DNA from: Candidatus Poribacteria bacterium
GTDB taxonomy: Bacteria; Poribacteria; WGA-4E; WGA-3G
NCBI GenBank assembly: GCA_022821065.1
Contig: JAJEEK010000073.1
Coordinates: 8,575-72,574 of the forward strand
Length of the DNA stretch: 64,000 bases
Direction: 5' to 3'
The translations under genes and the position numbers were made by a program. The notes beneath the pieces are model-generated. The model ran no database searches and had not been told where the DNA came from. It saw nothing but the letters and a program-made list of their open reading frames with translations. Of the stretch, positions 14,031 through 45,167 are shown piece after piece (position 1 is the stretch's first letter; each line of letters begins with the position of its first letter).

Positions 14031-14158
14031 CCTTGCGGTTCGGTGAGGTGCGTTGAATAACCAACGTTCCTCTCCGTAAATCCGCCCTCCATTCTGCGGC
14101 GTACTTGAAGAAACGCCCAAGCAAAAACCCCATAAGCGATCTGCTTCATTACGGGCTA
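14031..14158. repeat. REP-like family C copy interrupted by a family B insert
   Basis: CCTTGCGGTTCGGTGAGGTG...CCGCCCTCCA[52 nt]CTTCATTACGGGCTA; matches reverse complement of 59696-59760. Confidence 0.75.
14092..14143 (+). mobile_element. ~53-nt family B mini-element, copy 1
   Basis: TGCGGCGTACTTGAAGAAAC...AGCAAAAACCCC core shared with 14216 and 45002. Confidence 0.75.
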
Positions 14159-14173
14159 AGGTTTAGGTTTAAT

Positions 14174-14346
14174 AGGACTTACCCATGATGCGCTTTCGTA
14201 CCACAAACTTCCAGTTTTGCGGCGTACTTGAAGAAACACCCCAGCAAAAACCCCAGATGCGAAGTGCATCGTGCCACAAAAACGCTGTGTTTTCCGAAAA
14301 ATTTCATCTAACACAACCGCCTACAGTCAAAAATTGCGTCCGCCCT
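14174..14346. mobile_element. Family A MITE copy (degenerate TIRs) carrying a nested family B insert
   Basis: AGGACTTACCCA...TGCGTCCGCCCT; 173 bp = 120 + 53. Confidence 0.8.
14216..14268 (+). mobile_element. ~53-nt family B mini-element, copy 2
   Basis: TGCGGCGTACTTGAAGAAACACCCCAGCAAAAACCCCAGATGCGAAGTGCA. Confidence 0.75.
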
Positions 14347-14358
14347 GTCTAAAAATCT

Positions 14359-15705
14359 TTACAACGCCTTTTCTGCCTTCAGCCACTCAAGCGTCTGTGT
14401 AAACGCTGCGACCGTTTCCGTGATGTCGTCGTCTGTATGCGCCGCTGTTGTCATTCCACCGTTGTTAGCAAGGTCAACACCGTTCAGCAACAACCCACAT
14501 CGGAGACGTTCCTGCATATCTGGATCGCTATTGCCTTTCAGTTTCCGATAATCCCATGTATACGGATCGAAATCGGAGGCACGAACATCCTTTTCGCCGT
14601 GTCCAATGAGCAGTCGAATCCCCGAAAATTCGCCGTAAACCACCCAGTCGAGTCTGTAATCGTCAATAATGCTGTTCAATTCTGTGCGAAGTCGGTCTGC
14701 TGTCCGATGTGCTTGTTTGTGGGGTTCACCTGTCTTGACGATGTTGAGCATCGCGATTCCTGCAGCGGCAGAGAGCGGATTCGCGTTGAAAGTGCCGGGA
14801 TGTGGCATTTTCAAACCGTCTGGTTCCGATTTCATTGAGATGAGTTCAAGAATCTCCGTTTTACCGACAAGTGCACCACCAGGGAGTCCGCCTGCCAAAA
14901 TCTTCGCGAGTGTCGTCATATCCGGTGTAACGTCGTAATGCGCTTGCGCGCCGCCCGGTGACACTCGGAACCCTGTAATCACTTCGTCGAAGATCAACAG
15001 AACGCCGTGCGCTTCTGTCAGTTCACGGAGCTGCTTTAAGAACGTTCCGTTTGTCGGGACGATACCGAAAGAGGCACCCGTCGGTTCGAGGATAACACAC
15101 GCGATGTCTTTATCCGTTTTCAATAACGTTTCAACAGCATCAATATCGTTCGGTGGACATAACAGCGTTGTGTCTCGTACCTCTTGTGGAATGCCGGGGA
15201 CACTCATATCGAAAGGTGGATATGCCCCTAAGATGAGGCTATCGTGCCAACCGTGGAAATGTCCCGTGAATTTCAACACTTTATTTTTACCGGTGTAGGT
15301 GCGAGCGAGGCGGATCGCCATCAACGTCGCTTCCGTACCGGAACTGACGAACCGAATACGCTCTGCTGACGGTATCAGCTGTGTCACGAGCGAACCCCAT
15401 TTCAGTTCCAACGGGTGGCATGCACCATAGTGTGTGCCGCGGTGCATCTGCGTCGTTACCGCTTCCACAACTTCCGGTGGATTATGTCCGAGGAGCAGCG
15501 CACCGTGTCCTGCCCAATAGTCGATGAATTCTTTACCGTCAAGCCCCCATTTTTTTGACCCGTCAGCACGCGTGATATAGATCGGAAAGGGAGACATATA
15601 TCGACCGTCGTGCGTTACACCGTCCGGAAACAGGCGGTTCGCTGTCTGCGCCATTTCTCTATCTTTTGCGAAAGTTTTTTGATAACGTTCTAAAATGGTG
15701 TGCAT
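14359..15705 (-). CDS. Class III PLP aminotransferase (glutamate-1-semialdehyde aminomutase-like)
   Basis: SSGTEAT, GHFHGWHD, LIFDEVITGFR, TLAKILAGGLP, GTFNANP. Confidence 0.88.
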   Translation of the reverse strand: MHTILERYQKTFAKDREMAQTANRLFPDGVTHDGRYMSPFPIYITRADGSKKWGLDGKEFIDYWAGHGALLLGHNPPEVVEAVTTQMHRGTHYGACHPLELKWGSLVTQLIPSAERIRFVSSGTEATLMAIRLARTYTGKNKVLKFTGHFHGWHDSLILGAYPPFDMSVPGIPQEVRDTTLLCPPNDIDAVETLLKTDKDIACVILEPTGASFGIVPTNGTFLKQLRELTEAHGVLLIFDEVITGFRVSPGGAQAHYDVTPDMTTLAKILAGGLPGGALVGKTEILELISMKSEPDGLKMPHPGTFNANPLSAAAGIAMLNIVKTGEPHKQAHRTADRLRTELNSIIDDYRLDWVVYGEFSGIRLLIGHGEKDVRASDFDPYTWDYRKLKGNSDPDMQERLRCGLLLNGVDLANNGGMTTAAHTDDDITETVAAFTQTLEWLKAEKAL

Positions 15706-16010
15706 CTTTTCGCCTCGTTTTTTCAGGTATTTGTGAATCATTATAGCATATTTCCGTTTTATATGCGAAATGAATTTTTCAACAGAAGTATTCAGCTTTC
15801 CTGCTTTTCAATTTTATGCAAAGCATCACGACCAAGTTGTCGCTCAGACAGTGAAATCCCCTCAAGCAGAAGATCAAAATATTGGAGAATTGATGCCTTT
15901 GTAAATGAAGAAATTTCCGTTGACACGTCCATATAAATAGTGTATACTCTATCAATATTGATTATTGGCCATAAGAGGAACACTATTCGTTATAGGTATG
16001 GAGAAGTTTG

Positions 16011-16883
16011 ATGTCTACCGATAGTCCAATGGCAGATCGCAATTTTTTAGATCCTATTTTCAAAGAGGTAATGACGTTTAACTTTGCTCAACTTGCCTTA
16101 CCTGTTGAAACGCAAGTGGAAATCAGTCGACTTCCTCGGACGATGGACGCTCTTGTTGTTCTTGAGCAGACCGCTGAACGGGAAAAGGTTCGTGTGCAAA
16201 CAGCGTTCAATTATTTTCGAGTCTACAATCAGATCGAATTCAAGGCAAAAAATGACCCACTAACACGGGATGAGTATAACTTTATCCGAGGACGCAGTTA
16301 CCTTTATCTCGGTGAAAAGCAGATATCTGCGTCTTTAATGACGATTACGATCATTTCCGCTCGACAACCGAGGAACGTTCTCTATCACTCCTCTCTTGAT
16401 GTGAAATGGGAATCCGAGGGCATAGGACATTACAAAAGCACAGATATCTTTCCGGTTCACCTATTTGTGTGCAACGAACTTGAACTCACTAAGAAAAATT
16501 ACCCGCTTCTTTTGTTTGCAACATCAAAAGAGAAGTTTCGCCAGTTTGTTGAACGTATTATAGGCGAGGACAATTTAACCTACATTTACTACGCGTCCCG
16601 TGTTGAACCGAAGATCACAAAGGAGATTTTAAAAATGGCTGGAAAACAGAGCTTATATGAAAAACAGCTTCGACGAATTATTGATAGCATGGGGGAAGAT
16701 CTATTAGAAAAAATGACCCCAGAAGAACGCGTGCGTGGCTTGACAGTTTCTGAACGTGTGCGTGGCTTGACAGTTTCTGAAATGTTAGCAGGACTTGACA
16801 TAGAAGATTTACGCGCATTGGATCCCGAAGAAAAAGCAGCACTCCTACAAGTGTTGGATCAACCAGACAAAACACAGAACTAA
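16011..16883 (+). CDS. Hypothetical protein, PD-(D/E)xK/Rpn-like, with C-terminal ERVRGLT repeats
   Basis: LPRTMDAL...QIEFK nuclease-like motif; C-terminal TPEERVRGLTVSERVRGL. Confidence 0.6.
   Translation: MSTDSPMADRNFLDPIFKEVMTFNFAQLALPVETQVEISRLPRTMDALVVLEQTAEREKVRVQTAFNYFRVYNQIEFKAKNDPLTRDEYNFIRGRSYLYLGEKQISASLMTITIISARQPRNVLYHSSLDVKWESEGIGHYKSTDIFPVHLFVCNELELTKKNYPLLLFATSKEKFRQFVERIIGEDNLTYIYYASRVEPKITKEILKMAGKQSLYEKQLRRIIDSMGEDLLEKMTPEERVRGLTVSERVRGLTVSEMLAGLDIEDLRALDPEEKAALLQVLDQPDKTQN
16723..16779 (+). repeat. 27-bp in-frame tandem repeat (2 copies)
   Basis: GAACG(C/T)GTGCGTGGCTTGACAGTTTCT x2. Confidence 0.8.
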
Positions 16884-16920
16884 ACAAGACGTATGTAAGA
16901 TAAACGTGAAGGAGCGTTTC

Positions 16921-18126
16921 ATGAAACAGATAGAAGGCGGAATTACCGCTGTTTCGGGTGTCCGGGCAGCGGGTATTCATGCCGGTATTAAAGCAGCGGA
17001 AGCGAAAGACGTGGCACTCATCGTTACGGATACACCAGCGACTGCTGCCGGAGTTTTCACTAAGAATAGCGTTACCGCCGCACCTGTCATCGTCTGTCGC
17101 GAGCATCTCAAAGCTGGTCAAGCGCAAGCCGTTATCATCAATAGTGGGAACGCCAACGCCTGCACCGGTGAGGTCGGCATGGCAAATGCACGACGGATGG
17201 CTGCCGCAACAGCAGAACAACTCGGCATAGACGCAACCCTCGTCTGTGTCTCTTCTACCGGTGTTATCGGACAGCAGTTGCCGATGGACAACGTCGAAAA
17301 CGGAATTCAAGCCGCCGCACGCGCACTGAACACCGAAGGTGGAAGCGATGCAGCCGAAGCGATTATGACAACCGATACGCATCCGAAGTCTGTTGCTGTA
17401 GAAATTGAGATCGGCGGTGCCTCTGTGAAGATCGGCGGGATTGCCAAGGGTTCCGGCATGATCGCACCAAATATGGCTACAATGCTCTCCTATCTGACAA
17501 CGGATGCTAAGATCAACGCTGAAACGCTTCAGGCTGCGCTCAGCCGTGTTGTAGATGACACCTATAACCTCTTAACCGTCGATACAGATCGCAGCACCAA
17601 TGATACAGTGTTGATTTTGGCGACTGGACATGCAAGTAACGCCGAAATTGTTACATCGGCTGGTAAAGATTACGAGGCGTTTTGTGAAGGACTTCAGTTC
17701 GTCTGCACCGAACTAGTAAAGATGCTCGCCCGCGATGGCGAAGGCGCGACGAAACTTGTTGAGGTGGTCGTTAAGGGCGCGGAAAATCGCGACGATGCGG
17801 AGAAAGCAGCACGTGCTGTTGCGGAGTCGCCACTCGTTAAAACCGCTGTGTTCGCCAACGATGCAAACTGGGGACGGATCATGATGGCGATCGGGAAATC
17901 AGGGGCGGAGTTCGATCCGTATCAAGTCGATGTCTATCTCGCCGATTATCAACTCGTCAAAGGAGGGATGGATGCCGGTTACGATGAAGATGAGGCGACC
18001 ACTCTGTTCGCACAAGATCCGGTCCGTATTACGATTGATCTCGCTGCGGGGGACACAGAAATAACGATGTGGACCTGCGATTACTCCTACGATTATATCC
18101 GAATCAATGCAGATTATCGGACATAA
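16921..18126 (+). CDS. argJ: Ornithine acetyltransferase ArgJ
   Basis: NSGNANACTG, AIMTTDT, KGSGMIAPNMATML, STNDTV, DGEGATK, NWGRI, INADYRT. Confidence 0.96.
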   Translation: MKQIEGGITAVSGVRAAGIHAGIKAAEAKDVALIVTDTPATAAGVFTKNSVTAAPVIVCREHLKAGQAQAVIINSGNANACTGEVGMANARRMAAATAEQLGIDATLVCVSSTGVIGQQLPMDNVENGIQAAARALNTEGGSDAAEAIMTTDTHPKSVAVEIEIGGASVKIGGIAKGSGMIAPNMATMLSYLTTDAKINAETLQAALSRVVDDTYNLLTVDTDRSTNDTVLILATGHASNAEIVTSAGKDYEAFCEGLQFVCTELVKMLARDGEGATKLVEVVVKGAENRDDAEKAARAVAESPLVKTAVFANDANWGRIMMAIGKSGAEFDPYQVDVYLADYQLVKGGMDAGYDEDEATTLFAQDPVRITIDLAAGDTEITMWTCDYSYDYIRINADYRT

Positions 18127-18153
18127 CCTTTATAAATAAGGATACCAAATACA

Positions 18154-18567
18154 ATGCGACACACAGCCGAAATCAAACTCGTAAATCTACAAGATTTACA
18201 TGCCGTAAGATTAGGTGTGAGGAAATCGAACGAAGTGCGGCAACTCACCGTTGCGGATGCGCTCGTTGATACTGGCGCGACACGTCTCTGCTTGCCAACG
18301 TCACTTATTGAACGACTCGGTCTCACACCTGTCAGCAAAAGGACTGCGCGGACCGCTGCCGGCATCGTGGAACGCACCGTCTATTCTGAGGTCGAATATA
18401 CGCTTTTAGAACGGAGCAGCACCATCCGGGTAACCAATCTACCTGAAGGCGCACCAGTGCTCATTGGGCACATGGTATTGGAAGAATTAGACCTCTGCGT
18501 TGATATGAAAAAAGGATTGATCTACAACCCCGCACACGGCGATGATTGGATCGAAGAACAACTCTAA
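18154..18567 (+). CDS. Clan AA aspartyl protease
   Basis: ALVDTGAT catalytic motif; VLIG..VLEELDL. Confidence 0.85.
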   Translation: MRHTAEIKLVNLQDLHAVRLGVRKSNEVRQLTVADALVDTGATRLCLPTSLIERLGLTPVSKRTARTAAGIVERTVYSEVEYTLLERSSTIRVTNLPEGAPVLIGHMVLEELDLCVDMKKGLIYNPAHGDDWIEEQL

Positions 18568-18631
18568 GCAGGTTGAACAATATAGAACGGAACAGAAAAC
18601 TCGGTCGGTTTCGACGGTGTCCCAAATTTTT

Positions 18632-18703
18632 TGACAAAAATTCAAATTTCTGCTATTCTAATGGAAAATTAATTTGACATTTAAAAGCAAATGTATTAAA
18701 CTA
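18632..18703 (+). promoter_or_regulatory. Tandem sigma70 promoters of the tRNA operon
   Basis: TTGACA...TATTCT and TTGACA...TAAACT. Confidence 0.6.
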
Positions 18704-18751
18704 TATATGCTTTTGAAGGTGTAGAAGGTTTTCTACACGGAAGTACAGGAT

Positions 18752-18826
18752 GCGGGAGTAGCTCAGTGGTAGAGCTCCACCTTGCCAAGGTGGAAGTCGC
18801 GAGTTCAAATCTCGTCTCCCGCTCCA
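18752..18826 (+). tRNA. tRNA-Gly(GCC)
   Basis: GCGGGAG acceptor, TTGCCAA anticodon loop, GTTCAAATC T-loop, 3' CCA. Confidence 0.96.
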
Positions 18827-18835
18827 TCTCTTTTT

Positions 18836-18910
18836 GGTGGCGTAGCCAAGTGGTAAGGCCAGGGCCTGCAAAGCTCTTATTCGTCGGTTCGATTCCGACC
18901 GCCACCTCCA
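18836..18910 (+). tRNA. tRNA-Cys(GCA)
   Basis: GGTGGCG acceptor, CTGCAAA loop, GTTCGATTC, 3' CCA. Confidence 0.95.
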
Positions 18911-18925
18911 TTATCTCTCCGAAAC

Positions 18926-18999
18926 GGGTGGTTAGCTCAGGTGGCTAGAGCGTTTGCTTGACATGCAAGAGGTCACAGGTTCAAGTCCTGTACCACCCA
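18926..18999 (+). tRNA. tRNA-Val(GAC), CCA not encoded
   Basis: GGGTGGT acceptor, TTGACAT loop, GTTCAAGTC. Confidence 0.93.
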
Positions 19000-19190
19000 T
19001 CCTTCCAAAATTCTGACCCTGAACGACAAAAACGTAGCGGATTTGATGCTGTGTTTTTTTAATTGGCATTTCCATTCGTATATCGTGTACAATTATTTCG
19101 TAAACGGTGTAGGAAAAAAGACGTTAAGTCTATTAAGACCAATTTTGAAGCCCACACGAATCGACACATAATATGTGAGAGTGAACCGCA

Positions 19191-20978
19191 ATGCGTGAAC
19201 CCAATCAACCCGAAGACTATTTACAACGCCTACGCCATTCGACCGCGCATATCATGGCGTATGCCGTCCAACAACTCTTTCCAGATGGCGAACGTACCGT
19301 TAAACTCGCGATCGGACCCCCGATCGAAAACGAGTTCTATTACGATATGGAGGTACCGCGCCCGATTACACCCGACGATTTTCCTGAAATCGAAAAGCAC
19401 ATGAAGGCGATGATTAAAGCGAATGTGCCTTTTCAACAGGAGACTTGGCGTTACGACGATGCCCGTGAATGGTTCAGCGAACGCGACCAGAAATTCAAAC
19501 TCGAATTAATCGATGGCATCTCCGATCGCGAAGTCAGCGCAAGCGATGAAGGCGTCGCTGACGAAGGCGTATCTATCTATCACAACGGCGATTTCACGGA
19601 CCTTTGCAAAGGACCGCACGTCGAAAAAACAAGCGAATGCCGATACTTCAAATTGCTCCGCGTTTCTGGAGCCTATTGGCGCGGCGATAGCAATCGCGAG
19701 CAGTTGCAACGAATTTACGGCACCGCATGGGAGACGAAAGCCGACCTTCAGGCGTACTTGACACAACGCGAGGAAGCCGCCAAACGCGACCATCGGAAAC
19801 TCGGGCGCGAGTTAGAGATTTTTCAGATGCATCCCGAATCGCCAGGGAGTCCGTTTTGGCTCCCGAAAGGCGCGCGCATCTATAACCTCTTGTCCGAAAA
19901 AGTACGAAAACTCTATCTCAGCGAAGGGTATCAAGAGGTACGGACACCGCTCATCTACGATAGTAGTCTTTGGGAAACCTCGGGGCATTGGGAGCATTTT
20001 AAGGACGATATGTTCATCATTGAAAACGAAGACGGCGAAACGGCAAGTGCACTCAAGCCGATGAACTGTCCCGCACACATGCTGATTTACAAAAGCGCGC
20101 GCCATAGCTACCGAGACCTGCCCTACCGTCTGCATGACCAAGGCGTGTTGCATCGCAACGAACCGACGGGTACGCTAACCGGTTTGTCCCGTGTCCGCCA
20201 GTTGTGCCAAGATGACGCACACAACTTCGTCACGGAAGACCAAATCGCGGATGAATACGAGCGTATCCTTGAACTCTTCCAACGCATTTACGGCACTTTC
20301 GATCTGCCGTTCCGATGCGATTTGAGTACCCGAAATCCGGAGAAGTTTATGGGCGATGTAGAGGTCTGGAATCGCGCAGAAGTAATACTTGAGGATGTGT
20401 TGAAAAACAATCAGATTGAGTATAGTGTTGATCCCGGCGAAGCGGCGTTCTACGGTCCTAAACTCGATTTTCAGGTGCGAGATTCGCTTAACCGGGACGT
20501 ACAATGTGCCACCGTGCAACTCGATTTTCAACTCCCGGAACGGTTCGATCTCATCTACGTCGCATCCGACGGGTCCGAAAAGCGACCAGTCGTGATCCAC
20601 CGCGCGATTTGTGGGAGTTTTGAACGGTTCATCGCAATGCTCATTGAGCATTATGCCGGTGCCTTCCCAACATGGCTCTCTCCGGTGCAATGTGTCGTCA
20701 TGACGATTAGCCAACGTTTCGTTGACTACGGTAGAGAGGTCGAACAACTTCTGTTGCAAAAAGGGTGTCGTGTTACGTTAGATAACAGCGATGACAAGAT
20801 CGGTGCAAAGATTCGCCAAGCCCGATTGCAACGTGTTCCCTATATGTTAATTATTGGTGGACGTGAGGAGGAGAACCGCACCGTCAGTGTCCGAAGTCGA
20901 GATGAAGGCGACATCGGCGCGATGGCACTTGATACCTTCGTCGACAAACTTGTCGCGGAAGCAGACTTGGATTTTTAA
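19191..20978 (+). CDS. thrS: Threonine--tRNA ligase
   Basis: LRHSTAH, DLCKGPH, KRDHRKLG, KPMNCP, QDDAH, AFYGPKLD, VIHRAI.GSFERF. Confidence 0.97.
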   Translation: MREPNQPEDYLQRLRHSTAHIMAYAVQQLFPDGERTVKLAIGPPIENEFYYDMEVPRPITPDDFPEIEKHMKAMIKANVPFQQETWRYDDAREWFSERDQKFKLELIDGISDREVSASDEGVADEGVSIYHNGDFTDLCKGPHVEKTSECRYFKLLRVSGAYWRGDSNREQLQRIYGTAWETKADLQAYLTQREEAAKRDHRKLGRELEIFQMHPESPGSPFWLPKGARIYNLLSEKVRKLYLSEGYQEVRTPLIYDSSLWETSGHWEHFKDDMFIIENEDGETASALKPMNCPAHMLIYKSARHSYRDLPYRLHDQGVLHRNEPTGTLTGLSRVRQLCQDDAHNFVTEDQIADEYERILELFQRIYGTFDLPFRCDLSTRNPEKFMGDVEVWNRAEVILEDVLKNNQIEYSVDPGEAAFYGPKLDFQVRDSLNRDVQCATVQLDFQLPERFDLIYVASDGSEKRPVVIHRAICGSFERFIAMLIEHYAGAFPTWLSPVQCVVMTISQRFVDYGREVEQLLLQKGCRVTLDNSDDKIGAKIRQARLQRVPYMLIIGGREEENRTVSVRSRDEGDIGAMALDTFVDKLVAEADLDF

Positions 20979-20982
20979 TTTG

Positions 20983-21092
20983 CAATCAACAATCAGCAGT
21001 CGGCGATCAGAAAGAGAACCTTGTGGGGGTTATCGTAAACATGCCTACCATATTGTGCTCTACTGACAGCCGAAGGCTGATGGCTGACAGCC
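20983..21092. repeat. Inverted heptamer-array repeat (family E)
   Basis: TCAGCAG-type units facing CTGA(C/T)(A/G)G-type units. Confidence 0.6.
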
Positions 21093-21115
21093 ATTCGTAA
21101 AAAGGAGCAGACCCC

Positions 21116-21751
21116 ATGGACAAAATTTTGACGGTTCCTAAACCTATCTTGTATAGATTGACAATTTATATCTTTCTCGTCGGAATAATAGCTTTTAGCG
21201 GTTGCAGTGCTTCAAAGCAGGTCACCCGTGTCGATACCGACACCACAATTGACCTGTCCGGACGCTGGAACGATACAGATTCGCGTATGGTGGCAGACGA
21301 GATTATCGGTGATTGTCTGAACCACCCCTGGATCAACAATCACGGGATAAGTACCGGTGATAAACCTGCTGTAATTGTCGGCGGCATCCGCAATAAAAGC
21401 ATGGAGCATATCGCTGTCGCTACATTCATCTCTGATATTGAACGTGCCTTTATCAATTCTGGGAAAGTTCGGACCGTCGCGAGTTCAAGTGAACGTGGCG
21501 AAATTCGTGAAGAGCGAGCGGATCAGGGCGAATTTGCTTCACTTGAAACCGTTAAACGGATGGGCCGCGAACTCGGTGCCGATTATATGATGACCGGTGA
21601 AATAAATACCATTGAAGACAGAGAGGGCGGCGATCAGGTCGTCTTCTATCAAACCGACCTTACACTGACAAACATCGAAACCAACGAGAAAGTTTGGATC
21701 GGTCAGAAAAAAATCAAGAAATTTATCGGACGAAGCAAATTTAAAATGTAG
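21116..21751 (+). CDS. lpoB: Penicillin-binding protein activator LpoB-like lipoprotein
   Basis: FSGC lipobox; DLSGRWNDTD, IRNKSMEHI, GADYM, EKVWIGQKKIKK. Confidence 0.8.
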   Translation: MDKILTVPKPILYRLTIYIFLVGIIAFSGCSASKQVTRVDTDTTIDLSGRWNDTDSRMVADEIIGDCLNHPWINNHGISTGDKPAVIVGGIRNKSMEHIAVATFISDIERAFINSGKVRTVASSSERGEIREERADQGEFASLETVKRMGRELGADYMMTGEINTIEDREGGDQVVFYQTDLTLTNIETNEKVWIGQKKIKKFIGRSKFKM

Positions 21752-21825
21752 AATATTCTCAACGCGTCTGTTTGGACGGGTCTCCGTGCCCGTCCACGCC
21801 TATTTTTTCAAATCTACGGAGGCAA

Positions 21826-23166: not shown

Positions 23167-23194
23167 ACTTTACCTTGCAACATAGAGAAAGAAC

Positions 23195-24612: not shown

Positions 24613-24651
24613 GCTACCTCCACAATAGTTATTTTTGGGAGGTAATGAAAA

Positions 24652-26294: not shown

Positions 26295-26425
26295 GATCTG
26301 CTGACGAGGTTTCCGAACCGCGTTTACCATTCATATCAGAAATCCAACAGGTCCCTAAACCCGTCGCGAATTGACCAGAAACCCGCCCGTAATGAAATGG
26401 AGGGGTTTTTGATTGGGCGTTTCTG
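26295..26425 (+). promoter_or_regulatory. Candidate attenuator/riboswitch leader with intrinsic terminator
   Basis: Alternative stems GACGAGGTTT/AAACCCGTC, AAACCCGCCC/GGAGGGGTTTTT and CAGAAACCCGCCC/GGGCGTTTCTG. Confidence 0.45.
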
Positions 26426-26451
26426 CAGCCCAGGAGGCCATAAATTAAAAA

Positions 26452-31727: not shown

Positions 31728-31740
31728 TAGTCTCGTAAGT

Positions 31741-34759: not shown

Positions 34760-34828
34760 TTCCGTCGACTAAGTTCTATTGATATTTTCGCGCGGTTGCA
34801 TCTCATACGGATGTGTCTGGAATGCAAC

Positions 34829-35145: not shown

Positions 35146-35196
35146 ATGTGTCTGGGATGCAACCCTATCCCCACATCAGCAGAAGGAGGGCCTTTA

Positions 35197-35685: not shown

Positions 35686-35822
35686 CCACGCCGTGTTTGG
35701 ACGGATGAAACGCCTCCCTTTCAAACGCATCGGTACGGGTCTGATCTGCTTCGGTCTCCTCTCCTTCACCTTCTGGATCCGTATCCAAAATGAACCCCCT
35801 CAAACAATTACACACCCCCATA

Positions 35823-35902
35823 CGGAAATTACGTTTGACATTATACCGCCGTAGTGTTATACTTAACTTTGTAAAATTGATTCTGTTTTGAAAGGATGTT
35901 GG
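35823..35902 (+). promoter_or_regulatory. Duplicated promoter block, copy 2
   Basis: TTGACA-17-TATACT upstream of the SDR gene. Confidence 0.75.
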
Positions 35903-35931
35903 GCATTATTGCAAGCCCACATTGAAACATA

Positions 35932-36723: not shown

Positions 36724-36750
36724 TGTGCTTGGACGGAGGTGTGATGAACG

Positions 36751-37467: not shown

Positions 37468-37490
37468 TGACAGCACAACTTAACAATACA

Positions 37491-37609
37491 AGGACTTAGG
37501 CATGCTGCTCTTTTGTACCACAAACTGTTAGTTTGTGACATAAGAACGCTGTGTTTTCAGAAAAATTTCATCTAACAGAACCACCTACTGTCAAGAGTGC
37601 ATAAGTCCT
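37491..37609. mobile_element. Family A MITE (119 bp)
   Basis: AGGACTTAGGCA...TGCATAAGTCCT. Confidence 0.82.
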
Positions 37610-37645
37610 GAATACAATAGTAAATCCAAGAGATCAGTGAGATTT

Positions 37646-39157
37646 ATGAAAGCTCGATTCTTATTTTTGGTCACACTCGTTACTTTTCTGGTAGTAATAT
37701 GTTCGGCAAAAGGTTTTTCACAAGAGGGGACCGTGCCTGAGGGTATGGTTCGGCTCATCTATTTTCTCCCGAAGGATAGCCAAGCGCAACCGAACATAAA
37801 CGCGAAACTTGATACTTGGATAAAAGAGGTTCAGCAACTATATAGCGACGAACTGATGCGCTATGGATTTGGGAGGAAAACTTTCCAGCTTGAAACCGAT
37901 GCGAACGGTAAAGCCGTTGTTCATCGCGTTGACGGTCTATCCGACGAAGCACATTATCATCACGGGACGTTTTCTAAGATCATCAAAGAGGTTTCCGAGC
38001 GGTTTGATGGTTCAAAGCACGCCTACCTCATTGTTGTAGAAACAAGTATCTTTGAAGGCGGCAGGAGTTGTGGAAAGGCAAATGGAAATGGTAGAACGGG
38101 TGGTTATGCCATGGTTCCCGCCACGGGAAACTGTGTTGCCGAAAATGTTGTCGTAGGGTTAGTCGCACATGAACTCGGTCATGTGTTCGGGTTGCCCCAC
38201 GATTTCCGCAGTGATACGTATATTATGTCTTATGGTCGACATTTAAGACGCAAGATCTCGCAATGTGCAGCTGAATGGCTGAGTGCGCATCCATACTTTA
38301 ATTGGCCCCGGAGAGGTGTTAATCAACCAACAGCGATCCAGATGCTTTCGTTTCAAGAAGAACCGCCCGACAAAATCCGGTTCCGCTTTCAGGTCTCCGA
38401 TGCCGATGGACTCGCTCAAGCGCAGTTAATCACTTTAACAACGGCGATACCTGTCGCTGCCGGATCGTCGGAGTTGATTGCCTGTCAGTCCTTAACCGGC
38501 AAATACAGTATCTCGACGTTTGTTACCACTGAACTGACAGTTCGTCCTGTGGAGGTCATTTCGCTCAGGGTCTTGGATAAGAAAGGCAACGTTGCTTCGC
38601 AGTCGTTTCCGATACAACGCGGTTCGGCTCCAGGACCGAAAATAGGCGGACCCTGGTTATGGATGATCGTCTCGACCGGTGAGAGAGGCGGCGCGGCTGC
38701 AGCGAAGTCTGGTATAGATTATCTCGAACAGGCAAGTAAAGGCAAAGTAACGGAAAAACAGATCGCTACTAAGGGCGCGACCGCCGGAGAAACCGTCGGA
38801 AGCAAAGCTTGGACACGCGGCTGGCTCGCATCGACGGGGAAAAATAATATCCAAAAAATGCTGTCAAAGATCGGCTTAGGATCCGGTGATATAGATGACT
38901 ATGTCGCTTACGGCAGTATTATAATCACGTCCCCGCGGAAGCAACAAACAACGATGTTCGCTGGTAGCGATGATGCCGTTAAAGTCTGGCTTAATGGAGA
39001 ATTGGTTCATAGGAATCCCGTCGATCGGTCATCTATCAACTACCAAGACTATTTTCCTGTTAACCTCAAACAGGGCAGAAATGTCTTATTAGTCGCAGTT
39101 TATGAGAACAGAATGGACTGGAGCGGGTTTTTTGGGTTTAGAAACGATAAAAAATAG
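37646..39157 (+). CDS. Secreted zinc metallopeptidase-domain protein
   Basis: Signal; VRLIYFLP, HELGHVFGLPH, YIMSYG (Met-turn); C-terminal GSDDAVKVWLNG beta domain. Confidence 0.8.
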   Translation: MKARFLFLVTLVTFLVVICSAKGFSQEGTVPEGMVRLIYFLPKDSQAQPNINAKLDTWIKEVQQLYSDELMRYGFGRKTFQLETDANGKAVVHRVDGLSDEAHYHHGTFSKIIKEVSERFDGSKHAYLIVVETSIFEGGRSCGKANGNGRTGGYAMVPATGNCVAENVVVGLVAHELGHVFGLPHDFRSDTYIMSYGRHLRRKISQCAAEWLSAHPYFNWPRRGVNQPTAIQMLSFQEEPPDKIRFRFQVSDADGLAQAQLITLTTAIPVAAGSSELIACQSLTGKYSISTFVTTELTVRPVEVISLRVLDKKGNVASQSFPIQRGSAPGPKIGGPWLWMIVSTGERGGAAAAKSGIDYLEQASKGKVTEKQIATKGATAGETVGSKAWTRGWLASTGKNNIQKMLSKIGLGSGDIDDYVAYGSIIITSPRKQQTTMFAGSDDAVKVWLNGELVHRNPVDRSSINYQDYFPVNLKQGRNVLLVAVYENRMDWSGFFGFRNDKK

Positions 39158-39225
39158 GAATATAGAACGTATGAGTCGTAATTTAGATTATATCAAATAA
39201 ATATTTGGAGGTTAAATTGCTAATT

Positions 39226-40839
39226 ATGTTTAAGCAATTAATTTATTCTATGCTTGTTTTCTCTTTGGTGATGGGTGTATCCTTCTCTGCACTCGGGCAC
39301 GGTGAAGGCGCCACACTGTTAGAGGATGTCAACAAAGATGGTATCGTGAACATTCAAGACCTTGTACTCGTCTCAGCAGCGTTTGGACAGCCCGGTGATC
39401 GCACTGCAGAACAGAACCCGGATGTCAACCGCGACGGCATTGTCAATGTGTTGGACCTTGTTCGCGTGAGCAACAGTTTCGGTCAAACTGAGGTCAATGA
39501 CAGTTCTACATATCACGATATTCAGGACTATATTTTTGATAAGAGTTGTGCAAACAGTACTTGCCACGCTGCACCCGCGAATGCCGGTAACTTGAATCTG
39601 ACCTACGGAACATCTTACTACGATTTGGTCGGACGCGTACCCCAGAATCCCTCGGCTGCAGCTGCGGGTATGAAACTGGTGGATCCGGAGAACCCAGACA
39701 ACAGTTTCCTTTTGACAAAACTGATGGGGCCAGAGTCCCCCGATCAAGGCGCACGTATGCCGTTCCTTAGTGGTGTCCTCCACGACGGTAAAATAGATGC
39801 GATTCGGACCTGGATTGAGGCGGGCGCCCCGCAGACAGGGAAAGTCGCAGGTATCGGTGACCTCGGTGTTTTACGCGACCCTGACGAAGTGTTTGAACCC
39901 CCCGCGCCACCGCCACCCGGTGAAGGATATCAACTCCATTTGCCGCCTTTCAAGATTGAACCCGGCACTGAACGTGAAGTCTATTACTCCACCCAAATCA
40001 AAGATGAAAATGGAAATCCGGTAGAAGAGGACATCTTTATTAATAGAGTAGAAATCTTCTATCCTTCTGGTAGTCATCACTTCATCGTATACCGTCTGAC
40101 AGAGGAAGGTTTGGCGAACGGTGTTCAAGACAGAGGTATCATACCTGGAATTGGTGTCAATTCGGAAGATCAATTCCGTGAACTCGATACAGATGACCCG
40201 CAAGTCCTCGGCAATTTTGGTGTCGATAGGCTTTTCGTCGTCGGAACACAAACCGATGAGACTATGTACGCGTTTCCAGAAGGCGTAGGGTTACGATTAC
40301 CGGGGGACACCGTTTACGACCTTAATTCGCATTACATCAATCTGCTCGGTGATGAGACCTTGGTTGGTGAAACCTATGTCAATATCTACACAATTCCAGA
40401 AGAAGAGGTCAAATACGAAGCTGTTGAAATTTTCGTTTCTAACAGAGCCATCAACGTGCCGCCCGGTACAACGCGCGTCGCCAAATTAACGTGGTATGTT
40501 GAAGATGAATTGGAACGCCGAGGGCACGACCCAGATACCGAATTGTTTGTCTTTTTACTCACATCTCACATGCACAGACACGGCGAATTGTTTGAGATTT
40601 TCCAAAAATCGACAGGTGAGCTGCTCCACCGGAGTATCGCTTACGACGATGCACCTATTGACCTCTTTAATCCGGTCCTCCAGTTAGATTCTGATGATGG
40701 AATCCATTTTCAGTGTACCCATGCCAACTACGATACAAATGAACCTCTCATATTCGGACTTACATCCGAGGATGAGATGTGTATCATCTTTGGTTACTAT
40801 TATATCCCGACTGAAAGAGCAGGCTCTATCATAAGATAG
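39226..40839 (+). CDS. Secreted dockerin + CxxxxCH + copper type II (PHM/DBH-like) monooxygenase
   Basis: DVNKDG/DVNRDG; SCANSTCH; GSHHF, NSHYIN, SHMH, EDEMC. Confidence 0.7.
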   Translation: MFKQLIYSMLVFSLVMGVSFSALGHGEGATLLEDVNKDGIVNIQDLVLVSAAFGQPGDRTAEQNPDVNRDGIVNVLDLVRVSNSFGQTEVNDSSTYHDIQDYIFDKSCANSTCHAAPANAGNLNLTYGTSYYDLVGRVPQNPSAAAAGMKLVDPENPDNSFLLTKLMGPESPDQGARMPFLSGVLHDGKIDAIRTWIEAGAPQTGKVAGIGDLGVLRDPDEVFEPPAPPPPGEGYQLHLPPFKIEPGTEREVYYSTQIKDENGNPVEEDIFINRVEIFYPSGSHHFIVYRLTEEGLANGVQDRGIIPGIGVNSEDQFRELDTDDPQVLGNFGVDRLFVVGTQTDETMYAFPEGVGLRLPGDTVYDLNSHYINLLGDETLVGETYVNIYTIPEEEVKYEAVEIFVSNRAINVPPGTTRVAKLTWYVEDELERRGHDPDTELFVFLLTSHMHRHGELFEIFQKSTGELLHRSIAYDDAPIDLFNPVLQLDSDDGIHFQCTHANYDTNEPLIFGLTSEDEMCIIFGYYYIPTERAGSIIR

Positions 40840-40847
40840 CGTCAGGA

Positions 40848-40932
40848 ACAGTTTCCAGTTAACAGTTTCCAGTTTCCAGAGAAGAGACCTCTTTTCTTAA
40901 CTGGTGACTGGTGACTGGGTACTGGGTACTGT
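40848..40932. repeat. Inverted heptamer-array repeat (family E)
   Basis: (CAGTTTC)n facing (ACTGG(T/G)(G/T))n. Confidence 0.7.
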
Positions 40933-40937
40933 CTCAT

Positions 40938-42821
40938 ATGACTACCACTTTAAGAAAAAAAGATAACTTCATAGATGCCTTAGCACACCGGATACTGATA
41001 TGCGATGGTGCTATCGGAACTGAACTTCGCAAACGGATACCCGCACATCTGCAGTGCGTTGATGCCTGCAACATTTCTACAGAGCATGCCGAGAAGGTGA
41101 TGGCGGTTCATCGCGCTTATGCCGACGCCGGGGCCGATGTTATCCAGACGAATACCTATCAGGCAAATAGAGAAGCGTTAGCAGTCCACGGTTTAACTGA
41201 ACAGGTCGAAGAAATTAACAAAACTGGTGTGTTCCTAGCACGCGAAGCGGCAACCGAGGCAAATTATATAGCAGGTTCCGTTGGACCGATTTCGTTCCAA
41301 AATTTTGATGCTGCGGTGCCTGCTACCAAAACAATCCGACAAATCTTCAAACAACAGATGGATGCACTCGTTGACGCAGGTGTTGATCTCCTCATTCTCG
41401 AAACTTTCGTCTCCCCGAAACAGGCAGAAGTCGCTACGAAACAGGCACTCACTTACGGGGTCCCTGTCATCGTTGAGATTAGCGGTGTTTCAGGTGGAAC
41501 TGTCGGTGCTGGCGTGGATGTACGTGTCTTCGCGCAGGAGTTGGAGCAACTCGGTGCACACGCAGTCGGTATCAATTGCCGGGGACCGCACGATCTGGTT
41601 GAAGCGATGGAACTCCTCGCGCCTGTCATCAAAGTACCGATTGCCGTTCAACCCAACGCTGGCAATCCGAGAGTCGAGCAAGGCGAAGTGGCGGTCTCCT
41701 ATACGGTGGAGGCTGAGGTTTTTAGGGACTACGTCAGAAAACTGGTTGAACTCGGCGCAAACATGATTGGCGGTTGTTGCGGAACGACCCCGGAATATAC
41801 AGCAAGGATCCGACAGGTCATCGGAGGACGTGAACCTGTCCAACGTGAGTCAAGGATCTTCGTCCTCCCGAAAATCAGGTCAGGGGGTGTTTCTTCAAGG
41901 GCGCCTCGCCCCTACAATAACCCTGTGCAGCAGGTATTTGAAACACGCGAACGTATCGTGAGTGTAGAGATGCGCGCCAATACATTCCCCCAATTGCGGG
42001 CGATGCTGAAGGAAGCAGAGCGGCTCGCCGCAATCGGTGTAGACCTGTTTGATGTGACCGACAATTCCGGTGCAGCGGTGAACATCGGTGCTGTGGGTAC
42101 GGCGTATCGGCTTCAGCAGGCAACACAGATTCCGACGCTCATCCATTGGACAACCCGATCGCGTAATCTCATCAGTATGCAATCGCACCTGTTAGAAGCA
42201 GAGGCGTTGGGCGTTCGGGGCATCGTCGCTTTATCCGGGGACCATCCGAAAGTCGGTCCTTATGAGACGGCGAGTCTTGTGCCAGATGTCCGGGGCGCGG
42301 TTCAGTTGATGAAACTTATCGCTCGGTTGAATCAAGGGCAGCTTGCCGACGGGTCATCTATTGGTGATCCCTGTGGATTTTACTATGGCGGGGGTTTCAC
42401 AATCGCCGAGAATCTCCAACCGCACGTCAAACATCTCGCAAATAAGGTGGCACAAGGGGCTAATTTCGCCTATACACAACCCGTCTGGACTTACGAGGAC
42501 ATCGCGCGCGCCCAGCAGGCGACAGGACATCTCGGTATAAAGATGCTTTATGGAATATTACCACTCACCAGCTTCCGCAGTGCCTCCTATCTACGCGACA
42601 ATTTAGGGCTTTATATCCCTCAGTTTATCGTTGACAAATTCCGTGACCTCGGAGATACCGCCGCAAAAGAACTCGGTATGCGGTTATGTTTGGAACTGGT
42701 TCGAGACATCCGTAATCTGGATGAGTGTGAAATTGACGGTATCTATTTAATCCCACCTGCTCGGATGAATTGGAAAAACAGAGCCAGTGTCATCTCGGAG
42801 ATCGTTAGAGCCTACCGTTAG
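40938..42821 (+). CDS. Bifunctional homocysteine S-methyltransferase / methylenetetrahydrofolate reductase (YitJ-like)
   Basis: DGAIGTEL, GINC, QPNAGNP, IGGCCGTTP; C-terminal MTHFR domain (VTDN, ALSGD, YTQP). Confidence 0.88.
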   Translation: MTTTLRKKDNFIDALAHRILICDGAIGTELRKRIPAHLQCVDACNISTEHAEKVMAVHRAYADAGADVIQTNTYQANREALAVHGLTEQVEEINKTGVFLAREAATEANYIAGSVGPISFQNFDAAVPATKTIRQIFKQQMDALVDAGVDLLILETFVSPKQAEVATKQALTYGVPVIVEISGVSGGTVGAGVDVRVFAQELEQLGAHAVGINCRGPHDLVEAMELLAPVIKVPIAVQPNAGNPRVEQGEVAVSYTVEAEVFRDYVRKLVELGANMIGGCCGTTPEYTARIRQVIGGREPVQRESRIFVLPKIRSGGVSSRAPRPYNNPVQQVFETRERIVSVEMRANTFPQLRAMLKEAERLAAIGVDLFDVTDNSGAAVNIGAVGTAYRLQQATQIPTLIHWTTRSRNLISMQSHLLEAEALGVRGIVALSGDHPKVGPYETASLVPDVRGAVQLMKLIARLNQGQLADGSSIGDPCGFYYGGGFTIAENLQPHVKHLANKVAQGANFAYTQPVWTYEDIARAQQATGHLGIKMLYGILPLTSFRSASYLRDNLGLYIPQFIVDKFRDLGDTAAKELGMRLCLELVRDIRNLDECEIDGIYLIPPARMNWKNRASVISEIVRAYR

Positions 42822-42834
42822 CGGCTCCACTTAA

Positions 42835-43013
42835 TGGTTATCAGTACGCAGTACGGTTTTTCTGCGAAAACCTTTCGGTTATCAGTTGTCAGTGGCCAGT
42901 CGCCAGTTAAAAAAAAGAAACTTGATGAACCAGACTCTCACTGCGAGGCACTCTTAACTGGTAACTCGTAACTGGAAACTGGAAACTATTTCCACTGACA
43001 ACTGATAACTGAC
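42835..43013. repeat. Inverted heptamer-array repeat (family E), long composite
   Basis: TATCAGT/TGTCAGT/GCCAGT units facing AACTGGT/AACTGGA/AACTGA units. Confidence 0.7.
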
Positions 43014-43020
43014 ATAAACT

Positions 43021-44949
43021 ATGCAAACTCGTGAAACGACCCGCTCATCAACCCGTGTTACAGGACGTTCGCTTCTCTTAGGCGTTTTACTCATCCCTGT
43101 CAACGTCTATTGGATGACACTTGTTGAGGTGAAGTACTACTCACTTGACGGTTCGTGTCTTCCGCTTTTTATCCAGCCTGTTTTCATTATGTTTGTCTGC
43201 GTCCTCGCGAACTGTGTGTTGAAATACCTTGCACCGCGGCAAATGCTACAGCAGGGGGAGTTACTCACAGTTTATATTATGGTGGCGATCTCCTGTACGT
43301 TCGCCGGACACGACACGATGCAGAACATGTTCGGCAGTATCGCGCATCCATTCCGGTTCGCGACGGACGAGAACGAATGGCAGGCACTCTTTTTTCGGTA
43401 TCTACCGACGTGGCTCACCATCTCGGATGCACAGAGTTTGCAAGGCTTCTACGAGGGCGAAGCGACTTTCTATACAAAGCACAACTTTTCGGTCTGGATA
43501 AAGCCGCTGATCTTCTGGGGTCTCTTTTTCCTAATTATGATGTTCATGATGCTCTGCATCAATACACTCGTCCGCAAACGCTGGGCAGAACAAGAGAAAT
43601 TGGCGTATCCGATTATCCAACTCCCGCTCCGACTTTCGGAGGATGGCGGTATCCTTCTCCTGAAGAATCGGATGATGTGGATGGGGTTCAGTATCGCTGT
43701 AGTCATCGGTGTGATTAATGGAGTCCACTATCTTTTCCCACAGTTTCCAGAGATCCCATATATCAAGCGGACAGCCGTATTCCAGAATATCTTCACCGAG
43801 CGTCCGTGGAACGTTATTCGCGGCACGCGAATCTCGATATATCCGTTTGCTGTCGGGTTAGCCTTTTTTCTACCGTTGGACCTCTCCTTTTCCTGCTGGT
43901 TTTTCTTTGTCGTGCGTTTAGCGGAGTTCGTCATCGGTGCAGCACTCGGTACGCGCTATTTCCCAGCACTGAACGAGCAAGCTTACGGTGCTTGGATCGC
44001 GCTTTTCTTGCTTGCGCTCTGGGTCACACGTCAGCATTTAAGCGAGGTATTGAAAAAGGTGTTCGGGTTTAAATCGCGTCTTGACGATTCCAATGAACCG
44101 ATGCCGTATCGTGCAGCCTTCTTAGGTATTCTCGGATCGCTCGTCGCGCTCGGTATCTTCGCTTCTCTGGCAGGGATGGCGTTATGGGTTGCGGGTGTTT
44201 TCTTCGGCGTCTATTTTCTGCTCTCTTTCGCGATCACGCGCGTCCGCGCGGAACTCGGCACACCGCACGAAATTTATTACGTGAATCCGCACGATATGTT
44301 GGCAACCGTAGGTGGCACGCGTCGGTTCGATCCAAGCAGTCTCACGATTATGTCGCTCTTCTACTGGTTCAATCGCGGCTACCGGAACCATCCGATGCCG
44401 AACCAGATTGAGGCGTTTAAATTGGGAGAAGCGACAGGGATGGGAAACCGGCGTTTATGGATGGCGATGCTGATCGCAATCGTTGTCGGGATCCTGGCGA
44501 CCTTTTGGGCGAACCTCGACATCACCTTCCGAAACGGTGCCGTTGCGAAAGCCGGTGGTTTCAAGGATTGGGTCGGTCGAGAATCGTTCAGTCGGTTGCA
44601 GCGATGGCTCCATAATCCAGCAGAACCGAACGTTATCGGTATGGGGTTTATGGGGATCGGTGCGTTGTTGACATTCGTGATGATGTATATGCGGATGCAT
44701 TTCTTGTGGTGGCCCTTCCATCCTGCAGGCTATGCACTCGCGATCAGTTTCGCAATGGACTATTTCTGGTTCGCCTTCTTCGTGGCATGGTTCCTGAAGC
44801 TAATGATTCTACGGCACGGCGGTTTGCGGCTGCATCGCAAAGTCGCACCCCTATTTTTAGGACTAATCTTAGGCGATTACGTCATCGGCAGCACCTGGGC
44901 AATCATCGGCCCCCTATCCGGCTTGCGTACCTATAAGATCTTCATCTAA
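43021..44949 (+). CDS. Polytopic membrane protein (DUF6785/DUF6784, OPT-like putative transporter)
   Basis: Many TMs; RWAEQEKLAYPI, WWPFHPAGY, PLFLGLILGD. Confidence 0.7.
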   Translation: MQTRETTRSSTRVTGRSLLLGVLLIPVNVYWMTLVEVKYYSLDGSCLPLFIQPVFIMFVCVLANCVLKYLAPRQMLQQGELLTVYIMVAISCTFAGHDTMQNMFGSIAHPFRFATDENEWQALFFRYLPTWLTISDAQSLQGFYEGEATFYTKHNFSVWIKPLIFWGLFFLIMMFMMLCINTLVRKRWAEQEKLAYPIIQLPLRLSEDGGILLLKNRMMWMGFSIAVVIGVINGVHYLFPQFPEIPYIKRTAVFQNIFTERPWNVIRGTRISIYPFAVGLAFFLPLDLSFSCWFFFVVRLAEFVIGAALGTRYFPALNEQAYGAWIALFLLALWVTRQHLSEVLKKVFGFKSRLDDSNEPMPYRAAFLGILGSLVALGIFASLAGMALWVAGVFFGVYFLLSFAITRVRAELGTPHEIYYVNPHDMLATVGGTRRFDPSSLTIMSLFYWFNRGYRNHPMPNQIEAFKLGEATGMGNRRLWMAMLIAIVVGILATFWANLDITFRNGAVAKAGGFKDWVGRESFSRLQRWLHNPAEPNVIGMGFMGIGALLTFVMMYMRMHFLWWPFHPAGYALAISFAMDYFWFAFFVAWFLKLMILRHGGLRLHRKVAPLFLGLILGDYVIGSTWAIIGPLSGLRTYKIFI

Positions 44950-45001
44950 CGTTGCTCGATAAATCGCACAGCGACAAATCCTCCGTTTGTAGTAGGGCAA
45001 T

Positions 45002-45054
45002 TCTGCGGCGTACTTGAAGAAACACCCCAGCAAAAACCCCAAATGCGAAGTGCA
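45002..45054 (+). mobile_element. ~53-nt family B mini-element, copy 3, inside a GTAG-GGGCAAT/ATTGCCC hairpin
   Basis: GTAGTAGGGCAAT[TCTGCGGCGTACTTGAAG...GAAGTGCA]TTATTGCCCG. Confidence 0.75.
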
Positions 45055-45167
45055 TTATTGCCCGTTTATTACCGAATATTCCCTTGACTTTTCGTCTAAT
45101 GTATGGTAGATTTAAAATAAAATCCTCTCCCCACCATTCCGAAATAAAATGAAGGTTATTACTCTCT

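Follow-up and report, generated by a model that had tools for sequence, protein, structure and literature searches.

A sequence of about 53 nt recurs three times in a stretch of Candidatus Poribacteria DNA, each time inside a different larger repeat, and is a composite of two nested, separate modules: a 32-nt sequence with two small hairpins, here termed X, and a sequence of 21–23 nt, here termed the core, which X carries in its left hairpin. The analysed stretch, referred to as the window, comprises 64,000 nt of contig JAJEEK010000073.1 (assembly GCA_022821065.1, positions 8,575–72,574, forward strand; contig C31 in the numbering used here) and belongs to a sponge-symbiont genome of 5.14 Mb in 124 contigs with a G + C content of 47.7%. 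An original prediction, made from the letters of the window alone, had described the 53-mer as one non-autonomous element that parasitises other repeats. X and the core are very probably two nested modules that are mobilised in trans or were formerly mobile. The explanation that on balance accounts best for the observations as a whole is that of two non-autonomous mini-elements, of which X would be moved into hairpins by an enzyme of the HUH kind, whereas the core would be placed by another route.

A 20-mer from the original prediction has three matches in the window, all on the + strand and starting at 14095, 14218, and 45004, against a chance expectation of 0.00 (100 dinucleotide shuffles). 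All three predicted copies are present, with boundaries lying 2–3 nt to the right of those first given, and no long terminal inverted repeat was seen on reading them, as had been claimed. The copies, their host repeats (including a MITE, or miniature inverted-repeat transposable element, and a hairpin of the repetitive extragenic palindrome type, REP), and two related features of the window are as follows:

14019..14162 (-), host 1, a family C repeat; 5' leader abutting the ATG at 14016–14018 and ending in a GTAG-tagged hairpin
14095..14146 (+), copy 1, X of subfamily iii with core, between CCATTC and CATTACGG in the family C hairpin loop
14106..14128 (+), core in copy 1, a ACGCCCAAG variant; plain X reads CG there
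14173..14346 (+), host 2, MITE A; about 174 bp versus the basic 120–123 bp, ends AGGACTTAC.. / ..GCGT, right end degenerate
14218..14270 (+), copy 2, X of subfamily i (ends in C) with core, in the central MITE A hairpin (3' arm, AGTTT before it and GTG after it)
14229..14251 (+), core in copy 2, TGAAGAAACACCCCAGCAAAAAC
44989..45063 (+), host 3, REP-type hairpin with GTAG tag and arms GGGCAAT/ATTGCCC, X with core in the loop
45004..45056 (+), copy 3, X of subfamily ii (A at position 18, ends in T) with core, directly after GGGCAATTC
45015..45037 (+), core in copy 3
59696..59772 (+), family C without X or core; CG then CCCTCCA on the other strand, ATG at 59773
26405..26426 (-), fourth core, diverged, in a short family C leader beside a start codon, at the customary CG position

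The open reading frame (ORF) downstream of the host 1 leader spans 13035–14018 on the - strand, the MITE ends of host 2 are of the AGGACTTACGCA type, and the hairpin of host 3 is itself nested in a larger repeat with ATTACCGAA-type ends. The hosts had been recognised correctly. Host 1 belongs to a family with an uninterrupted copy (59696–59772), host 2 is an enlarged MITE A, and the reading of host 3 as a GTAG-tagged GGGCAAT/ATTGCCC hairpin agrees with its sequence. The empty site in host 1 had been placed at CCCTCCA/CTTC; the family C copy concerned is indeed empty, but better-matched paralogous and orthologous empty sites put the junction between CCATT(T/C) and CATTACGG.

The composite nature of the 53-mer became apparent from the lengths of MITE A. 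Pairing of its outer parts throughout the genome yielded 199 copies, of which 157 measure 120–128 bp, two 154 bp, and 12 174–176 bp. The 154-bp form contains a plain 32-nt X insert (for example C2:15019–15050, TGCGGCGTACTCGCCCAGATGCGAAGTGCATC), and the 174–176-bp form contains X with a further 21–23 nt inside it, the core being swapped in for two bases (CG) of the left hairpin of X. Among 42 X candidates in the genome, 19 are plain and 17 carry the core; of the others, three have a different insert between the two hairpins (a 34-nt hairpin), one has a longer insert, one is a divergent form, and one is a doubtful match inside an open frame. Four more copies, of subfamily iii, were found in addition, resulting in 45 credible ones. 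The core has 133 copies in the genome at ≤3 mismatches, a set that does not include the diverged core at 26405..26426, compared with 0, 0, 0, 0, and 1 for five shuffled cores. X harbors only 19 of the 133, and 98 lie in other repeat classes as assigned by rule. The 53-mer thus did not hold up as a single unit, since X and the core of about 22 nt each have their own distribution and insertion rule, and neither did the notion of one element that moved three times: the window copies represent three X subfamilies, each bound to its host class. Long open frames cover 87% of the genome and contain 17 of the 133 cores and 6 of the 42 X candidates, so that both modules are mostly intergenic.

Further small inserts were observed in X and MITE A. 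X hosts at least two other tiny hairpin modules between its hairpins, one of 34 nt (in three different host repeats) and one of 38–70 nt (C6:164, C72:5168, C77:76707, C55:7809, and positions 2203–2290 of the stretch L186 from a relative). MITE A has a second site at which seven copies carry a G/C-rich hairpin insert of about 30 nt, and several copies hold whole other MITEs in the central hairpin, as seen among copies of 149–152 bp and 238–276 bp (e.g., C120:12234 and C121:729).

The hosts of the 45 X copies, as read here, comprise the central hairpin of MITE A (23 copies), a REP family with GGTGCGGTT-type arms (8), the GGGCAAT REP (2), a related GTGCGAT-type REP (3), another GTAG REP (1), and family C (3); one copy lies directly behind another X, and for four the host is unclear. 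X therefore occurs in at least six unrelated host kinds, and the claim that the sequence is found only inside other repeats, made for the window, extends to the genome: 41 of the 45 X copies lie in a recognisable repeat hairpin or directly behind another X, and 117 of the 133 cores in a rule-defined host. The base preceding X is T in 40 of the 42 candidates of this genome. In other Poribacteria records, 84 plain X copies represent 51 distinct contexts, in which the preceding triplet is TTT (n = 27), ATT (n = 9), TTC (n = 8), CAT (n = 4, in tandem behind X), GTT (n = 2), or ATC (n = 1); TTT, ATT, or TTC thus precede X in 44 of the 51 contexts, and its orientation to the triplet is constant in all 51. 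The right flanks have nothing in common (GTG, CCAACC, ATTG, CATTAC). X is found in either arm of the MITE A palindrome and, read on its own strand, always has AGTTT before it and GTG after it, which indicates one target that can be read on either strand. No flanking duplication was detected in any of the filled/empty comparisons (MITE A, the copy 1 locus, and the copy 3 locus).

X can form two hairpins of 4 bp each, GGCG/CGCC and ATGC/GCAT. At the third pair of the first hairpin (positions 6 and 13), 119 plain copies from 112 loci read C-G 75 times, T-A 41 times, T-G three times, and C-A never, a covariation that supports pairing. In this genome, 11 copies have the first-hairpin arms GGCG/CGCC, 6 have GGTG/CACC, and 3 have GGCG/CACC, with a mismatch. 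Three subfamilies can be distinguished. Subfamily i, the MITE A form to which copy 2 belongs, has G at position 18 and ends in C, and in subfamily ii, the REP form of copy 3, position 18 is A and the last base T; the respective states were found in 18 versus 53 distinct contexts. Subfamily iii is the family C form and has the second hairpin AAGC/GCTT instead of ATGC/GCAT; besides copy 1 it includes a plain X at the identical site of a family C copy on contig C23. Composites of X and core are also present in other species. Two histories would explain this: entry of the core into three X subfamilies, each time at one common site, or a swap of halves between X copies.

The core lies in at least 10 kinds of host repeat, other cores included. 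Rule-based classification from the immediate flanks assigned the 133 copies to X (n = 19), GGTTCGGTT-type REPs (n = 18), another core in inverted (n = 17) or direct (n = 11) orientation, family C (n = 15), other GTAG- or GCAG-tagged hairpins (n = 15), the loop of a GCGAG REP (n = 13), the GCCCCTACGGGGC hairpin (n = 6), and the GTCGCGTAGCGAC hairpin (n = 3); the other 16 are unclassified, and 11 of them lie in repeats as judged by eye. Altogether, 28 of the 133 are located inside another core. This classification replaced a BLAST test for repetition of both 40-nt flanks, which undercounts short REP hosts and was positive for 49 of the 133 cores, 24 of the 42 X candidates, and 25 of 400 controls. 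With respect to genes, both modules are found in both orientations, and their locations include MITEs, REPs, and one another.

Filled and empty host pairs were obtained by BLAST for 58 of the 133 cores, covering at least seven host kinds. The empty site mostly reads CG followed by CC(C/T), and the core replaces those two bases. Hosts of this type are X, the GCCCCTACGGGGC hairpin, family C, a REP in which ACAG precedes the site, and the core itself; three more hosts have another two bases replaced. The first four bases of the core vary with the host family (GAAG 74, TAAG 21, CAAG 11, GGGG 9, GCAG 9, others 9). Over 83 distinct contexts, the core has CC or AC at its right junction in 68 and T as its left neighbor in 57. 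Within 12 nt of the core, CTAC, the complement of the GTAG tag, occurs on the 3' side in 43 of the 133 copies and on the 5' side in none; in GTAG-tagged repeats the core lies on the strand opposite the tag and directly beside it. The core itself resembles two similar 12-mers, and tandem or partial arrays occur.

Comparison of orthologous sites revealed presence and absence of both modules. The locus of copies 1 and 2 was compared in 11 relatives. Nine have neither family C nor MITE A in the spacer, which consists of about 50 bp in six, about 120 bp in two, and 660 bp of other sequence in one, and one further relative has 102 bp with other repeats. In genomes G018 and G017, family C is located at the same place and abuts the same start codon; there it contains a core where the window reads CG, and no X is found between CCATTT and CATTACGG. 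At the copy 3 locus, genome G122 (locus L143) has the same GTAG hairpin and both flanks with nothing after GGGCAATTC, its left gene being 92% identical to that of the window and the 100-nt anchor beside the site 96%; the other 17 relatives that hold this anchor have unrelated sequence at the site. The modules are thus present or absent at orthologous sites, which is taken here as evidence of mobility. Together with the 157 MITE A copies that lack the insert, this also agrees with the original view that the 53-mer is not a fixed part of one larger element.

The sequencing runs that hold the locus are mostly labelled as sponge metagenomes, as are all four that were compared at the locus. In one of these metagenomes, a family C joint without X and core (side of 30 letters, depth 199) was observed beside the filled path (depth 130); it is not counted as evidence because contigs of mixed communities yield many joints from paralogues or other species. 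To the right of copy 3, positions 45138–45800 of the window match several places in many relatives without synteny with the left gene and probably represent a mobile or multi-copy gene.

The distribution of both modules was determined in 121 genomes, 44 of the same genus, 32 of the sister genus, and the rest of other genera. Since the first X pattern missed the CCCAGATG subfamily (subfamily i), the numbers for X are lower bounds: X was found in 38 of the 44 genomes of the genus (1–82 matches), in 3 of the 32 of the sister genus (two of them with 48 and 59 matches), in 1 of 1 and 1 of 14 in two further genera, and in none of the remaining 30. The core has 2–106 matches in 41 of the 44 genomes of the genus, the highest number being that of the genome studied here, and at most one match per genome elsewhere; three complete genomes of the genus are without it. 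Controls with reversed patterns gave 0 everywhere for both modules. The core is thus essentially confined to one genus, and X is patchy. The two X-rich genomes of the sister genus have no core, and two genomes with 81 and 83 core matches have no match to the first X pattern, which indicates that X and core are independent of each other.

Taxon scans by exact pattern, with one genome per species, found that all named records holding the core or X are Candidatus Poribacteria. A cyanobacterial origin of the modules, or direct identity with the small dispersed repeats (SDRs) of cyanobacteria discussed below, was therefore dropped. In viral contigs, a 17-mer of X had 13 matches that were attributed to chance, as none continues into the rest of X, and the core had one match in a REP-like context. 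An Rfam scan of the window at gathering scores yielded only three tRNAs, and no family matches the modules.

In the favored explanation, X integrates in a fixed orientation, right behind a T-rich triplet that lies in the loop or an arm of a hairpin belonging to another repeat. A trans-acting enzyme of the HUH kind that acts on single-stranded DNA (ssDNA), either of the IS200/IS605 type or resembling the REP-associated tyrosine transposases (RAYTs), could carry out this step, and hairpins may be hit because the triplet is exposed there as a single strand. The tandem arrangement of X fits this model, since its end reads AT and then C or T. Such an HUH mechanism for X is proposed only tentatively, as somewhat less likely than not, and an HUH mobiliser for the core is doubtful. 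The mechanism of the core probably differs from that of X, because its ends are not clean; the fact that 2 nt are lost, that the 5' edge varies, and that the core lies next to GTAG tags would suggest a patch-type event at a nick, either templated patch repair or strand transfer, perhaps by a REP-processing enzyme. After insertion, X and the core would be copied passively as the host repeat multiplies. The original description as a non-autonomous parasite of repeats is supported, and its suggestion of an HUH mobiliser is retained as a conjecture for X.

A number of results weigh against this explanation. The genome encodes five Y1 loci and 15 TnpB-like (PF07282) matches, which in itself speaks for the explanation, and it had been proposed that a RAYT or IS200-family gene framed by the element might exist. 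Split X ends were found in none of 13 Y1/TnpB loci of this genome, in which similarity to X was limited to chance-level 6–9-mers, and in none of 30 Y1 loci of five relatives, three of which have X motifs within 1.5 kb; one of these three (L186) was read and contains whole or interrupted X copies inside REP hosts, with no gene framed. This missing parent element, the location of the hairpins very near the ends of X, and their weak folds speak against an HUH mechanism for X: with only 4 bp per hairpin, the ssDNA folds of the three window copies are no better than those of shuffled sequences (z = -1.2, -0.5, and -2.3). Three X copies in this genome have a C-A mismatch in the first hairpin, and the covariation described above goes back to two or three lineages and not to a multitude of events. 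The X subfamilies follow the host class (i in MITE A, ii in REPs, iii in family C), and in the two X-rich genomes of the sister genus all six X copies that were read sit in one same REP loop, so that the counts there may reflect multiplication of the host REP; much of the copy number is thus passive, and there were fewer independent insertions than there are copies. The core insertion is not clean, with about 2 nt lost and the first four bases dependent on the host. Finally, the RAYT family that flanks cores in this genome occurs in 76 and the core in 50 of the 121 genomes, and the two sets do not match: two genomes without core have the family, and the search with this query at E 1e-10 did not detect it in at least eight genomes having 37–85 core matches, some of them single-contig.

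Several candidates for a mobiliser or an autonomous parent were rejected or yielded nothing. Two of the Y1 genes are RAYT-like and are flanked by inverted GCCCCTACGGGGC hairpins and other REPs, with self-nested cores close by (C2:6615–9959, locus L111, and C121:7827–11171, locus L112); their layout resembles a REPtron. The RAYT on contig C2 was dismissed as the mobiliser of the core owing to the mismatched distributions. Solo X halves in this genome turned out to be variants or interrupted copies and not the gene-flanking ends of an autonomous parent. In the sister genus, no evident transposase (among ORFs of ≥100 aa) lies between two X copies spaced 1.7 kb apart (L127); a 2.8-kb pair (L128) was scanned for repeat motifs only. 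One tnpA-tnpB pair was observed on contig C120.

Part of this evidence would be expected if no dedicated enzyme existed and X and the core were short patches that template switching, or gene conversion guided by microhomology, had copied between hairpin repeats in the course of replication or repair, their mobility being a by-product of a hairpin-crowded genome. The replacement of about 2 nt by the core, its microhomology-like junctions, the host-dependent first four bases, and the tandem or partial arrays of its 12-mers are all compatible with such copying, as are the lack of a cognate transposase in the Y1/TnpB loci examined and the failure of the RAYT family to track the core. This possibility is nevertheless considered unlikely. 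The ends of X are constant to within a base despite unrelated right flanks, so that microhomology cannot define its 3' end, and the orientation to the T-rich triplet is fixed in all contexts. Furthermore, the core is conserved almost exactly over dozens of species and is essentially absent from sister genera that have the same REP hosts and RAYTs.

Selection for a function, for instance as a protein- or RNA-binding site or as an element of a leader RNA, might likewise account for the strong conservation across species, for the constant orientation of the core relative to GTAG tags, and for its location in family C, where it lies in the 5' leader beside the ribosome-binding stretch of many genes. 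That the modules are functional motifs and not selfish mobile DNA is nonetheless improbable. At the one locus that allowed the core to be compared between species, two relatives have it and the window lacks it; X with core is missing from the sites orthologous to copies 1 and 3; and the modules are found in both orientations to genes and within each other as well as within MITEs and REPs. Three complete genomes of the genus manage without the core, and no Rfam family matches. The assembly is a repeat-rich draft with repeats at many of its contig ends, and X subfamilies correlate with host class, as one would see if the 53-mer were an assembly artefact or a fixed internal part of a larger element. 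The chance of this is negligible: it is already refuted by the filled and empty copies, MITE A included, and is opposed by the unrelated host kinds and the occurrence of the same modules in single-contig genomes of other species. Two nested mini-elements hence remain the favored explanation. A possible extension of it, put forward with more reserve than the HUH mechanism itself, is a hierarchy of 20–35-nt “nano-transposons” (X, the core, and at least two modules inside X) that would still be moving, would choose single-stranded triplets or GTAG-adjacent sites in the hairpins of other repeats, and would be driven by a trans-acting enzyme.

The family C host of copy 1 is a widespread 5' leader cassette with a basic form of about 77 nt and a head containing an AAGGAA stretch that resembles a ribosome-binding site. 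A start codon is located 9–11 nt from the head in 102 of 262 genome matches, and at exactly 10 nt in 74. Relatives without family C at the same gene have a different 5' untranslated region. A further copy in the window spans 26380–26450 (-), and family C had no match in the Rfam scan of the window. It may be a mobile leader or ribosome-binding-site element, or a large cis-regulatory family.

Among known systems, the small dispersed repeats SDR1–8 of the cyanobacterial Nostocaceae are the closest in kind, as judged from descriptions of their behavior. Like the SDRs, both modules are tiny, dispersed, and present in many copies (the core with 21–23 nt in 133 copies, and X with 32 nt in 45, slightly above the SDR range of about 21–27 nt), are nested inside other repeats and each other, and are present or absent at orthologous sites of related genomes. 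Elhai and coworkers reportedly described in 2008 that the SDRs of Nostocaceae are nested in each other and in mini-transposons and differ between orthologous sites. To our knowledge, SDRs are the only described case of 20–30-nt elements that are mobile in their own right. SDR5 is given as a 21-nt sequence (PMC13756078) that is inserted precisely between bases 3 and 4 of the repeat HIP1 (PMC4390886), its function is said to remain unknown (PMC13756078), and the authors of the work on REPINs (REP doublets forming hairpins) list SDRs among the repeats whose origin RAYT-like systems might explain (PMC3116915). The modules differ from SDRs in their occurrence in Poribacteria instead of Nostocaceae, in the greater length of X, its two hairpins, and its location after a T-rich triplet, in the replacement of 2 nt by the core instead of a clean insertion, and in their hosts, which are GTAG-tagged REP hairpins, a MITE, and a 5' leader, whereas SDRs reside in HIP1 or heptamer arrays.

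IS200/IS605 elements and their non-autonomous derivatives, which are moved by Y1 HUH transposases (TnpA), insert 3' of a short specific sequence in fixed orientation and without duplication, and have end hairpins but no inverted ends (PMC3479197). X shares the insertion 3' of a short T-rich sequence, the fixed orientation, the lack of target duplication and terminal inverted repeats, and potentially a small hairpin near each end. However, known derivatives are roughly ten times its size. The hairpins of X begin only 3 nt and 1 nt inside its ends, too close for separate guide sequences to fit, and no full-length element with X ends was found in the 13 local loci or the 30 loci of relatives. Neither module has the terminal inverted repeats or target-site duplication of MITEs.

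The bacterial interspersed mosaic elements (BIMEs) are mosaics of short motifs. The hosts of both modules are classical REPs consisting of GTAG and a hairpin, and two RAYT genes of this genome are flanked by REP hairpins and cores, as in REP/REPIN-RAYT systems. In contrast to REPs and REPINs, X lacks a 5' GTAG (it starts with TGC before the first hairpin), an inverted doublet, and a flanking RAYT, and the core has no hairpin; the RAYTs found here are flanked by the GCCCCTACGGGGC hairpin, and their presence does not match that of the core. The RAYT of E. coli cuts ssDNA at CT next to a REP and can transfer strands (PMC3479197), and cutting and joining of the RAYT type could in principle patch short segments beside GTAG tags. 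Repeat hairpins are also chosen as landing sites by IS1397, ISKpn1, ISPpu9, and ISPpu10 (PMC12288879, PMC8450116, PMC3116915); these are full-size, gene-carrying elements of the IS3 and IS110 families, whereas X and the core are geneless and have 22–32 nt.

No description of REPs, MITEs, or nested small repeats in Poribacteria was found in the literature, supplementary files lying outside the scope of the search. The behavior of the modules is that of SDRs; new are the phylum, the hosts, and the site rules. Elements of 20–30 nt that are mobile in their own right mark the lower size limit of transposable DNA, and the modules described here offer a second system, in an unrelated uncultured phylum, with clear site rules, four nesting levels, and a sharp phylogenetic edge, owing to which the enzyme can be searched for by comparative genomics and ssDNA assays. 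Through them, REPs, MITEs, and a widespread 5' leader change in length and fold, assemblies break, and repeat annotation can be misled, as the composite 53-mer illustrates. If the proposed hierarchy of nano-transposons were true, it would be a second, independent case of the SDR phenomenon. The confinement of the core to one genus, its absence from three complete genomes, and the patchiness of X could make a mobiliser findable by presence/absence profiling, an approach that has so far not been possible for SDRs.

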